Shown: positions 33,151 to 34,229 of the stretch, in pieces
How positions within the stretch are numbered: the first letter of the stretch is position 1
Layout of the letters: every line of letters starts with the position of its first letter
Virus record (IMG/VR): IMGVR_UViG_2778261164_000004
Location: 1 to 41,360 of that record
Strand: one strand, 5' to 3'
Origin: a virus
Taxonomy: Duplodnaviria > Heunggongvirae > Uroviricota > Caudoviricetes
Length of the DNA: 41,360 nt
The notes under the pieces: model-generated
Told to the model about the DNA's origin: nothing
The model's input: only the letters and a program-made list of their open reading frames with translations
Databases searched by the model: none
Made by a program: the position numbers and the translations under genes

Positions 33151-33636
33151 CTATCTGATATTACTGCTACTGTTGCATGTTACCGTGTTTCCAAATCCTG
33201 AATTGCAGTTTGTATATGTGTCAACGCGTGTTGGGTAAGGTTGAGTTATAACAGGCTGGCGCGCTTTTTGCTCGATCGCTTGCATTGTGTTTACAGCCTG
33301 ATAATTCAATAAATCCTGCTGGAATGCTTGGCTTTGTGCTATTTGTTGTGCTTGTTCTTGGCTTTGTAATTGAACATAAAGATTCTGAAGTTCAAGTCTT
33401 GCCTGTGTGTCACTTATCTTGCCTTCATCGACACCTTGCCCGAGCATCTTCGCAGCAAGGACATACAGCTTAGGTGTTGGTGCTGATGCCATGCGAGAGT
33501 CGTTCTTCAAGCTGGCATCAAGGCAATTAGCCATATCGCTAAGCTTTGGATAGCGTTGCTCGCAACTTGCCTGATAGTCGCTTACTTTTGCGCACCCAGC
33601 CAGCAGAAGCGGGATAATTAACAGTGATTTTTTCAT
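33151..33636 (-). CDS. Moron lipoprotein (161 aa) with Gln-rich central region and Cys-rich C-terminus
   Basis: AAGGAG RBS before ATG at 33636; signal peptide MKKSLLIIPLLLAGC with lipobox; opposite strand to the flanking virion genes. Confidence 0.6.
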   Translation of the reverse strand: MKKSLLIIPLLLAGCAKVSDYQASCEQRYPKLSDMANCLDASLKNDSRMASAPTPKLYVLAAKMLGQGVDEGKISDTQARLELQNLYVQLQSQEQAQQIAQSQAFQQDLLNYQAVNTMQAIEQKARQPVITQPYPTRVDTYTNCNSGFGNTVTCNSSSNIR

Positions 33637-33670
33637 ATAATTAACTCTCCTTAGTTTTGCGCAGGATACC

Positions 33671-34036
33671 ATGAAAAAAGTTAACATTGGAAACGTACCA
33701 AAGATGCTCGTACCGCTCTTTGAGAGCGGTACAATTGTGTTTTGTAGAGACTTTCCAGAATGGCAACGCCTGCATCAAAAACTTGGCGTTGACGTGCATG
33801 ACTCGGACGCCAACGGAGCGTCTCATACAATGAGTAGCGAGAATGGTGTTTTGCATGTGATAGGCGTGTTCAATGGCAAACTATCTACTATTGCCCATGA
33901 GTGCGCTCACATGGCATTCGATATCTGCTCAAGGGTAGGTGTTGATGTTGAACCAGGAAGAGCCAACGAGACTTACTGCTACTTAATGAGCAGGCTTGTT
34001 GAGTTCTGCGAGCGACATATCAAAAAGCCGGAGTGA
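33671..34036 (+). CDS. Small protein with HExxH motif (121 aa), possible mini-metallopeptidase
   Basis: IAHECAHMAF contains HExxH; divergent from the lipoprotein gene; stop codon lies inside a hairpin. Confidence 0.45.
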   Translation: MKKVNIGNVPKMLVPLFESGTIVFCRDFPEWQRLHQKLGVDVHDSDANGASHTMSSENGVLHVIGVFNGKLSTIAHECAHMAFDICSRVGVDVEPGRANETYCYLMSRLVEFCERHIKKPE

Positions 34037-34043
34037 CCCGGCT
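34026..34043. terminator. Bidirectional hairpin terminator between convergent moron genes
   Basis: AGCCGG-AGTGAC-CCGGCT flanked by AAAAA on one side and T-rich sequence on the other. Confidence 0.5.
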
Positions 34044-34049
34044 TGATTA

Positions 34050-34229
34050 TTACTTTTTGCTGTCTGGAGTTCGCTTATCCAATACCCAGCCATGACCTGG
34101 CTTTGTTGTTGGTGGAAGCCTTTCGTTGTCCTTGACGGTGGCAAAATTGTCTTTCTTACCGCCGCGTGGGCCAACTTCTTGGTATATTCCGCCGTTTTTT
34201 CCTGTGTTTTCACCTGGTTTTTTCGCCAT
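34050..34229 (-). CDS. Small Gly/Lys-rich protein (59 aa), YjzC-like by pattern
   Basis: GAGG RBS before ATG at 34229; MAKKPGENTGKNGGIYQEVGPRGGKKDNFATVKDNERLPPTTKPGHGWVL resembles a small conserved family (recalled, unverified). Confidence 0.45.
   Translation of the reverse strand: MAKKPGENTGKNGGIYQEVGPRGGKKDNFATVKDNERLPPTTKPGHGWVLDKRTPDSKK

Follow-up and report, generated by a model that had tools for sequence, protein, structure and literature searches.

The outer-membrane lipoproteins Llp of phage T5 and Cor of the phages phi80, N15 and HK022 block DNA entry and act on FhuA for siphoviruses. Ltp of TP-J34, a lipoprotein of a Gram-positive phage, blocks DNA entry on the extracytoplasmic side and acts on the tape-measure protein (PMC3952083). 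In P22, SieA blocks DNA injection via the gene products (gp) 16 and 20, and sieA is present in 22 of 66 P22-like phages (PMC10883804). In our study we analysed positions 1 to 41,360 of the IMG/VR virus record IMGVR_UViG_2778261164_000004 (the whole stretch of 41,360 nucleotides is called the window in the following). At the sieA locus of this window the sieA open reading frame (ORF) is replaced by a gene encoding a lipoprotein of 161 amino acids (aa), next to the small genes hkcC, encoding a protein with an HExxH motif, and orf59a, encoding a Gly/Lys-rich protein.

Replacement of the sieA ORF by a lipoprotein gene

In a megablast comparison with phage genomes, positions 33100-34300 matched P22 and about 50 of its relatives over 33643-34300 only, with 98% identity. 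Therefore, hkcC and orf59a adjoin sieA in P22, too. The homology break with P22 falls at the Shine-Dalgarno (SD) sequence of the lipoprotein and sieA genes, as the identity in the alignment starts at CTCCTTAG, which is the SD on the minus strand. Both genes are preceded by an identical CTAAGGAG and by identical upstream 85 bp. Transfer of the P22-pbi annotation to the window by a constant offset placed the P22 promoter PsieA at 33671-33701, where it overlaps the first 31 nt of hkcC; according to this mapping and the alignment, the common SD and 5' region including the PsieA equivalent extends over 33637-33701 on the minus strand. In P22, the 85 bp upstream together with the sieA ORF are enough for exclusion from a single copy (PMC10883804). 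These comparisons show that the lipoprotein gene alone replaces sieA, and does so precisely, behind the conserved SD and PsieA promoter. They also show that the accessory stretch consists of two separately inherited modules, the lipoprotein cassette and the pair hkcC-orf59a, which is also carried by P22. A first-pass annotation of the window had placed all three genes where P22 carries sieA. This holds for the lipoprotein gene only; a single three-gene unit in place of sieA was rejected because P22 has hkcC and orf59a, at 98% nucleotide identity, next to sieA. The 121-aa ORF of hkcC is intact in P22 (99%), and the annotation of phage UAB_Phi20 describes this HExxH ORF as 'similar to HK620 hkcC'.

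The slot equivalent to window 33151-33640 was surveyed in 82 loci with an hkcC at least 98% identical to that of the window (among them the IMG/VR P22-like prophages L023-L102). In each of them we read the ORF of the opposite strand whose start lies 25-34 nt upstream of hkcC. These ORFs represent 12 unrelated families, all but one of them (11/12) with an N-terminal hydrophobic segment. The lipoprotein of the window occupies the slot in 18 loci, SieA of type A in 14 and a 129-aa signal-peptide protein in 12. N-terminally anchored coiled-coil proteins of 113, 109 and 106 aa are found in 8, 6 and 5 loci, respectively, membrane mini-proteins of 75 and 62 aa in 8 and 4 loci, and four rarer types in 7 loci together. 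None of the slot cassettes gave a Pfam match above threshold, except for a YobH-like match of one cassette. In no locus surveyed were sieA and the lipoprotein gene present together. Furthermore, tblastn with P22 SieA gave no match in any lipoprotein locus, and the SieA motif FxRYPxEAxxFNK is missing from the lipoprotein. The slot thus described, a fixed promoter and SD driving interchangeable envelope proteins of which one is a proven exclusion protein, provides a strong case of guilt by position. The 62-aa cassette is unannotated in all four GenBank phage records carrying it.

In 81 of 85 lipoprotein loci the next gene is a convergent gp16-type ORF of at least 500 codons, and these gp16 types are often only 30-40% identical to that of the window or to one another. 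The upstream neighbour varies, being hkcC in 17 loci, a gene of the type found in Escherichia phage Gally in 17 and others in 51. The position after the gp16 gene is the same for distant members in Yersinia ruckeri, Pectobacterium, Klebsiella aerogenes and Proteus phage Brookers; in Pectobacterium and Brookers the lipoprotein gene follows an Arc/Mnt gene on the same strand. In the Pectobacterium prophage (L194, 3006-4474) an Arc/Mnt-type repressor gene heads an operon of four genes on one strand, which encode proteins of 82, 148 and 91 aa and, in last place, the lipoprotein; the two middle proteins have no Pfam match, and an extra 117-aa gene lies between the lipoprotein gene and gene 16.

The ORFs described in the first-pass annotation are all present: the lipoprotein gene (33151-33636, minus strand), hkcC (33671-34036, plus strand, which is the strand of the late operon) and orf59a (34050-34229, minus strand, at the same position by offset mapping from P22). 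The RefSeq annotation of a 98%-identical E. coli prophage contains the same three coding sequences. Homologues of the three proteins form 87, 32 and 108 clusters, respectively, which shows conserved families and not chance ORFs. The ribosome-binding sites claimed for the individual genes are readable, with AAGGAG 9 nt before the ATG of the lipoprotein gene, AGGA before hkcC and GAGG before orf59a. The terminators claimed for each gene are reduced to one bidirectional intrinsic terminator (34025-34044) common to the convergent genes hkcC and orf59a, which corresponds to 't mnt' of the P22 annotation (34022-34044 by offset mapping). No terminator-like site was found after the lipoprotein gene by the terminator scan of the window, its stop codon lying 13 nt from that of the gene 16 homologue. 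The longest mechanical ORF of the lipoprotein gene (33151-33687), which has 17 additional upstream codons and would encode 178 aa, was rejected as not having the real start. Longest-ORF calling lengthens not only the lipoprotein to 178 aa but also SieA to 236 aa (UAB_Phi20, L002 2003-2713). Both extensions are an in-frame upstream stretch overlapping hkcC on the other strand and represent an annotation artefact in some records.

The lipoprotein gene is convergent on the 3' end of the gene 16 homologue (31290-33137, plus strand), which encodes a 615-aa ejection/DNA-transfer protein; it is annotated as 'DNA transfer protein' by RefSeq in the 98%-identical prophage, and its homologues in neighbouring position carry the Pfam domain Phage_P22_gp16. 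On the other side, mnt (34329-34580, minus strand, in agreement with the offset mapping) encodes an Arc/Mnt-family repressor at the start of immI (Pfam Arc and Repressor_Mnt, 98% identical to P22 Mnt). The divergent promoters Pant and Pmnt were detected by the promoter scan at 34603-34636, coinciding with the P22 annotation, and arc, ant and the tailspike gene follow beyond mnt. These flanks indicate that the window is a P22-like (Lederbergvirus) phage or prophage of E. coli, and they bear out that the accessory genes lie between the last ejection-protein gene and mnt of such a phage.

Family, predicted location and expression of the lipoprotein

The lipoprotein precursor (phrog_6067, function unknown) begins with MKKSLLIIPLLLAGC and contains the lipobox LLAGC. 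Residues 12-15 (L-A-G-C) agree with the pattern [LVI][ASTVI][GAS]C and the +2 residue is not Asp; the signal peptide ending in this lipobox (residues 5-14) is the sole hydrophobic stretch. In an alignment of 27 sequences with 54-86% identity the lipobox Cys15, Ala16 at position +2, Cys25, Cys38 and a C-terminal Cys were invariant. Because of the Ala at +2, Lol sorting to the outer membrane is predicted, and because a lipobox signal peptide is not accompanied by any other hydrophobic segment, the protein is predicted to reside on the periplasmic face of this membrane. The conserved cysteines look like the signature of a periplasmic, disulphide-bonded domain of an outer-membrane-sorted lipoprotein. 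The AlphaFold2 model has a predicted local distance difference test score (pLDDT) of 65 overall and of about 80-88 for residues 18-100; it displays a helical domain (18-100), a long Gln-rich helix and a C-terminal beta-hairpin, everything after the signal peptide being modelled as soluble. From sequence and model we infer that the protein is lipidated, sorted to the outer membrane and facing the periplasm. Surface exposure, which the first-pass annotation had assumed, is not indicated, since Ala at +2 points to the outer membrane and the cysteine pairs to a periplasmic domain.

All organism-named clusters among the 87 of the family belong to the Enterobacterales, with members in Escherichia, Citrobacter, Serratia, Klebsiella, Cronobacter, Pectobacterium, Yersinia, Morganella, Providencia, Tatumella and Symbiopectobacterium; a further homologue was found in a Proteus phage. 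In E. coli, 186 of 5,426 complete genomes contain the gene, clinical lineages included. No Pfam, NCBIfam or PADLOC family was assigned to the lipoprotein, PHROGs gave a function-unknown family only, and the profile yielded just two chance-level matches among PDB sequences (E of at least 0.28). 'Lantibiotic' and 'MTase' matches in the library searches with the lipoprotein and hkcC were discarded as noise (E > 0.01). Neither the libraries nor the literature gave a function for any of the three proteins, as the first-pass annotation had supposed, and no functional paper on hkcC, orf59a or YjzC, to which orf59a is related (see below), was found in the literature.

An orthologue with 97% identity to the lipoprotein, GALLYPH_13, is encoded by Escherichia phage Gally, a prophage of strain LF82, whose expression values we took from the published tables of Misson et al. 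2023 (PMC9928086). In stationary phase in lysogeny broth GALLYPH_13 reached a mean of 70 normalised reads, compared to a prophage median of 15.6 and about 12-14 for the three ejection-protein genes (PMC9928086). In Dulbecco's modified Eagle medium (DMEM) its log2(fpkm+5) value, fpkm being fragments per kilobase per million reads, was about 8, and in macrophages 8.5-10.3 (log2 fold change 2.55, q = 4.7e-27; PMC9928086). The lipoprotein gene is thus shown to be expressed in the lysogen at transcript level for its 97%-identical orthologue. The Gally locus (L005, 2447-2866 and 2971-3486) comprises GALLYPH_13 and its divergent neighbour GALLYPH_14. GALLYPH_14 (139 aa) has a weak PEGA-like match, a mean of 51 normalised reads and was strongly induced in DMEM and macrophages. 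Both genes remained just below the moron cut-off of 78.1 used in that study, and Gally was therefore reported as devoid of morons.

hkcC and orf59a

The hkcC product (121 aa, phrog_1365, cytoplasmic) contains a single HExxH motif, H76-E-C-A-H80, as noticed before. In 81 relatives with 24-74% identity the sole invariant columns are H76, E77, H80 and E100, which is a gluzincin signature and strengthens the earlier reading of the protein as a minimal metallopeptidase. The AlphaFold2 model of the close family (18 sequences) has a pLDDT of 89 and the order beta-beta-alpha-beta-beta, followed by a helix 71-88 with H76-E77-x-x-H80 and a helix 100-116 with E100 at its start. By an exhaustive profile search we obtained 546 cluster representatives, nearly all with 100-140 aa. 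No Pfam, PADLOC or NCBIfam model matched hkcC, and PHROGs contain it as function-unknown only. The window protein matched neither PF06114 (ImmA/IrrE) nor PF10263 (SprT-like); among the 81 relatives one matches SprT-like (E = 1e-4) and none ImmA/IrrE. Foldseek detected no significant match to any solved zincin, and the close-family profile found nothing among PDB sequences. The wide profile matched myroilysin with E = 0.007, which is weak support for a zincin-like N-terminal subdomain only. The missing Pfam coverage and an hhalign probability of 2% against the PF18894 protein suggest that hkcC represents a separate, undescribed family of minimal gluzincin-like proteins with predicted metallopeptidase activity.

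In all contexts examined hkcC has the same orientation as the late or structural genes at its flanks. It is located between the tail-tube and tape-measure genes in siphovirus prophages of Rosenbergiella and Klebsiella, and between the lysis genes and terminase in Kluyvera, where it adjoins a PF18894 metallopeptidase gene. Such a neighbour, a 212-aa HExxH protein (PF18894 PhageMetallopep, E = 1e-42) encoded beside an hkcC homologue between lysis genes and terminase, was seen at L006 1330-1968 and L015 4376-5014. A kinship of the two proteins was rejected, as at the hhalign probability given above they have the motif alone in common. The promoter scan found no promoter-like site before hkcC, where the upstream sequence is the variable cassette. 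The antiterminated late transcript of P22 crosses the region between genes 16 and 9 to reach gene 9, and hkcC should therefore be made late; it is probably a late lytic gene. It is not a moron, as it is encoded on the late-operon strand and lacks a separate promoter.

The orf59a product (phrog_3202) is 59 aa long and, in agreement with the first-pass annotation, Gly/Lys-rich (9 Gly and 10 Lys, 32%). It scores 19.4 bits (E = 0.0013) with PF14168 (YjzC), whose gathering score is 25. PF14168 is matched by 13 of 21 homologues (best E = 4.1e-10), the family motif is conserved, and close relatives are labelled 'YjzC family protein' in UniRef, all of which indicates a divergent member of the YjzC family. 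The orf59a profile found nothing among PDB sequences. A sigma-70-like promoter, TTGACT-17-AATATT, was detected by the promoter scan between mnt and orf59a (34266-34294, minus strand). In L009, L010, L012 and L013, which are four unrelated phage contexts, the same promoter precedes the ATG by 63-68 nt. In L009, L010 and L012 orf59a ends at the same hairpin common to hkcC, and the hairpin sequence AAGCCGG..CCGGCTT is kept in L009 and L012. Having a separate, conserved promoter and the terminator in common with hkcC, orf59a is the only classic moron of the hkcC-orf59a pair. The first-pass annotation had taken all three genes for opposite-strand morons; this is correct for orf59a and partly so for the lipoprotein gene (PsieA and expression in the lysogen, no terminator), but not for hkcC.

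A direct repeat, CAATAT(T)...(C)CAATA(A/T)C, over and after the -10 element of orf59a (34240-34275, minus strand) was also present in L009, L012 and L013 and may be an operator. The mnt stop codon is spanned by a short hairpin flanked by T runs (34323-34336), which could be a terminator between mnt and orf59a. If so, orf59a would depend on its own promoter and not on Pmnt, contrary to the P22 annotation with 't mnt' downstream of orf59a.

The convergent block of hkcC, terminator, orf59a and promoter spans about 650 bp and is kept in different phages, so that it moves as a unit. An obligatory pairing was nevertheless rejected, because each gene is found without the other: hkcC homologues below about 45% identity have no orf59a, 11 of 80 near-identical P22-like loci lack orf59a, and YjzC-family genes also occur singly in accessory regions, in the vicinity of holins, toxin-antitoxin genes and defence genes. 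A functional link between hkcC and orf59a is possible.

Proposed roles and comparison with known systems

Our preferred explanation, whose chances we regard as evenly balanced, combines the lipoprotein cassette as an exclusion factor with hkcC as a late metallopeptidase and orf59a as a moron, distributed over two modules. The cassette (SD and ORF) has taken the place of the sieA ORF behind the conserved PsieA. Its product would be lipidated at Cys15 and delivered by the Lol system to the inner leaflet of the outer membrane, with a disulphide-bonded helical domain, a Gln-rich helix and a small C-terminal hairpin extending into the periplasm. There it would most likely shield the lysogen from superinfecting P22-like phages at the DNA-delivery step, either by interfering with the gp7/gp20/gp16 trans-envelope conduit from the outer-membrane side or by acting on an outer-membrane component needed by the phage. 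In either case the lipoprotein would be a functional analogue of the inner-membrane protein SieA. The suggestion of the first-pass annotation that the lipoprotein is a plausible exclusion factor has gained in weight, as the gene replaces the sieA ORF behind its ribosome-binding site and promoter and the orthologue is transcribed while the neighbouring late genes are silent. We give exclusion of some kind a chance close to even, or slightly below. The hkcC product would act in the cytoplasm as a minimal zinc metallopeptidase of the gluzincin type and be synthesised late in the lytic cycle. A more far-reaching version appears doubtful to us: here the sieA slot would be a promoter-anchored hypervariable slot for at least 12 unrelated envelope cassettes of SD and ORF, the lipoprotein would represent a new exclusion class that complements SieA of the inner membrane by blocking the ejection-protein conduit of podoviruses (gp7/gp20) from the outer-membrane or periplasmic side, and hkcC-orf59a would be a life-cycle-partitioned pair of a late metalloprotease and a YjzC-like partner or antagonist made in the lysogen.

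Host-directed outer-membrane lipoproteins of prophages exist, e.g. Bor of lambda. The lipoprotein might likewise be a lysogenic-conversion factor serving host fitness (envelope robustness, serum or macrophage resistance, adhesion) and not exclusion. The upregulation of the Gally orthologue in DMEM and macrophages and the occurrence of the gene in E. coli genomes including clinical lineages would suit such a role, which we nevertheless consider unlikely: deletion of the whole Gally prophage left macrophage survival unchanged (PMC9928086), the family occupies the P22-like sieA slot in all contexts examined, including the 81 of 85 loci with a gp16-type gene downstream, it has this slot in common with a proven exclusion gene, and no similarity to Bor or another Pfam family was found. 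Alternatively, exclusion might be based on RNA, with the PsieA transcript running antisense into the 3' end of gene 16 and the ORF being secondary. In phage BTP1 a lysogen transcript antisense to the gene 16 homologue and the tailspike gene, STnc6030, excludes BTP1, and the mutations that allow escape are found at the 3' end of gene 16 (PMC7067206); the 13-nt gap between the lipoprotein stop and gene 16, free of terminator-like sites, is consistent with this. The protein, however, is conserved at 54-99% identity with invariant lipobox and cysteines, and the neighbouring gp16 genes are only 30-40% identical to one another, so that they offer no common antisense target. Moreover, BTP1 has no cassette at this place, and in P22 the SieA protein itself is necessary and sufficient (PMC10883804), which renders an RNA-based mechanism highly improbable for the lipoprotein locus.

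For the second module, hkcC might encode a small non-enzymatic zinc-binding or regulatory protein, or its frame might be kept only by the overlap with the sieA promoter. The protein is very small and has no substrate-binding domain, neither a solved zincin nor a Pfam peptidase family was matched, and PsieA lies within the first 31 nt of the gene. On the other hand, the 546 cluster representatives are of similar length, most contexts examined are without sieA, and the confident model has the element order of a zincin core. In addition, the catalytic Glu77 is invariant together with three presumed metal ligands, which a purely structural zinc site would not need; a non-enzymatic hkcC is therefore very unlikely. 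The convergent arrangement also allows for a two-component system in which a YjzC-like inhibitor, substrate or antitoxin made in the lysogen acts on the lytic metallopeptidase, convergent transcription enforcing exclusivity. The pair with the same terminator and orf59a promoter recurs in tail clusters of Rosenbergiella and Klebsiella siphoviruses, in Xenorhabdus, Proteus and a Pasteurellaceae prophage and in metagenomic contigs, where hkcC is 43-63% and orf59a 61-80% identical to the window genes. But co-inheritance of a mobile 650-bp block explains the pairing equally well, neither gene matches a PADLOC model, hkcC homologues with 38-42% identity and the 11 P22-like loci mentioned above lack orf59a, and YjzC-family genes are often solitary. 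We regard such a two-component system as distinctly unlikely.

Several observations weigh against our preferred explanation as well. Library and structure searches revealed no known exclusion protein that resembles the lipoprotein in sequence or fold, and the confidence of its model is only moderate. In the Gally study GALLYPH_13 was not classed as a moron (70.2 versus the cut-off of 78.1; PMC9928086), and the Gally promoter differs from the PsieA region of the window, the cassette including the SD being the same. For hkcC, late lytic expression is presumed from its orientation. Furthermore, a strong terminator-like element, a GC-rich hairpin of 10 bp followed by a T-rich tract, is located inside codons 14-21 at the 5' end of hkcC (33710-33732, plus strand). 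Its calculated energy is -19.9 kcal/mol in the window; P22 and the homologues of Rosenbergiella and Klebsiella (L009/L010) have a weaker hairpin, and distant homologues have none. The element sits just upstream of PsieA, which is on the other strand, and might insulate this promoter or attenuate rightward transcription that is not antiterminated.

The genes were known from databases as hypothetical proteins, orf59a and hkcC by name and without function, and the SieA study of 2024 (Leavitt et al.) mentions neither the lipoprotein nor other slot cassettes (PMC10883804). The novelty lies in interpreting the lipoprotein as one of a dozen non-homologous occupants of the sieA slot, and hkcC as a wide family of mini-gluzincins. 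Two thirds of the sequenced P22-like phages are without SieA (PMC10883804). If the lipoprotein and the other cassettes exclude, this would explain what these phages use instead, and such exclusion factors would be orthogonal probes of the poorly understood gp7/gp20/gp16 trans-envelope conduit from the outer-membrane side. Given the presence of the lipoprotein gene in 186 of 5,426 E. coli genomes, it may affect the plating of therapeutic or typing podophages. The hkcC family, with 546 representatives and no Pfam entry, is an unstudied predicted minimal metalloprotease family carried even by P22. A conceptual surprise is not involved, since exclusion-type accessory genes are expected at the locus between gene 16 and immI.

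Compared with known systems, orf59a resembles YjzC (PF14168; Bacillus subtilis YjzC, function unknown) in length and in the motif KPG...G-x-Y-x-E-x-GPRGG...LPPT...G, but in the phage branch the gene brings along a promoter and a terminator and in many cases has hkcC as its partner. Similar to hkcC are the minigluzincins proabylysin and projannalysin, the predicted zincin-like protein 3e11, the M78 core of ImmA/IrrE-CapP and PF18894, all with a size of about 105-125 aa in common. Like these small zincins, hkcC would have the HExxH helix, the third-ligand Glu on the next helix and a small beta-sheet with a backing helix in front. PF18894 PhageMetallopep is alike also in place, as its gene adjoins hkcC homologues in some phages.

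STnc6030 of BTP1 (Owen et al. 2020, PMC7067206) is likewise a lysogen transcript from the opposite strand at the gene 16/tailspike junction of a P22-like prophage and confers exclusion. BTP1 differs in having no cassette ORF, whereas the window contains a conserved protein-coding cassette. Between the gene 16 homologue and the tailspike gene of BTP1 (L197 14022-14178) there are only 155 nt, with no cassette, hkcC, orf59a or immI; therefore, STnc6030 arises within the structural genes. The idea that STnc6030 is a hidden small-protein slot cassette was dropped in view of this gap and since the 62- and 75-aa cassettes are not in BTP1.

Llp, Cor and Ltp are, like the window lipoprotein, phage-encoded lipoproteins, they stop DNA entry of related phages on the periplasmic or extracytoplasmic side, and a similar mode would be expected for the window protein. 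No homology to them or to Bor was detected by Pfam, PHROG-function and PDB matching, Llp and Cor being set apart by library searches alone. P22-like podoviruses use the O-antigen and then the ejection-protein conduit. The target of the lipoprotein would therefore differ from those of Llp, Cor and Ltp.

P22 SieA, a representative of an exclusion protein family with types A-C (PMC10883804), is polytopic in the inner membrane and carries the motif FxRYPxEAxxFNK on its cytoplasmic side. In the lipoprotein, in contrast, the cleavable lipobox signal peptide is the only hydrophobic segment. Both genes have the same slot, on the opposite strand directly after gene 16 and before immI/tailspike, and in this window the same SD and promoter; they are mutually exclusive in the surveyed loci. 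The products are also similar in size (161 aa versus 164 aa for SieA), prophage-expressed and, for the lipoprotein by prediction, envelope-located. Hence, the lipoprotein gene agrees with sieA in its position between the homologues of genes 16 and 9 and in the transcription of its orthologue in the lysogen.

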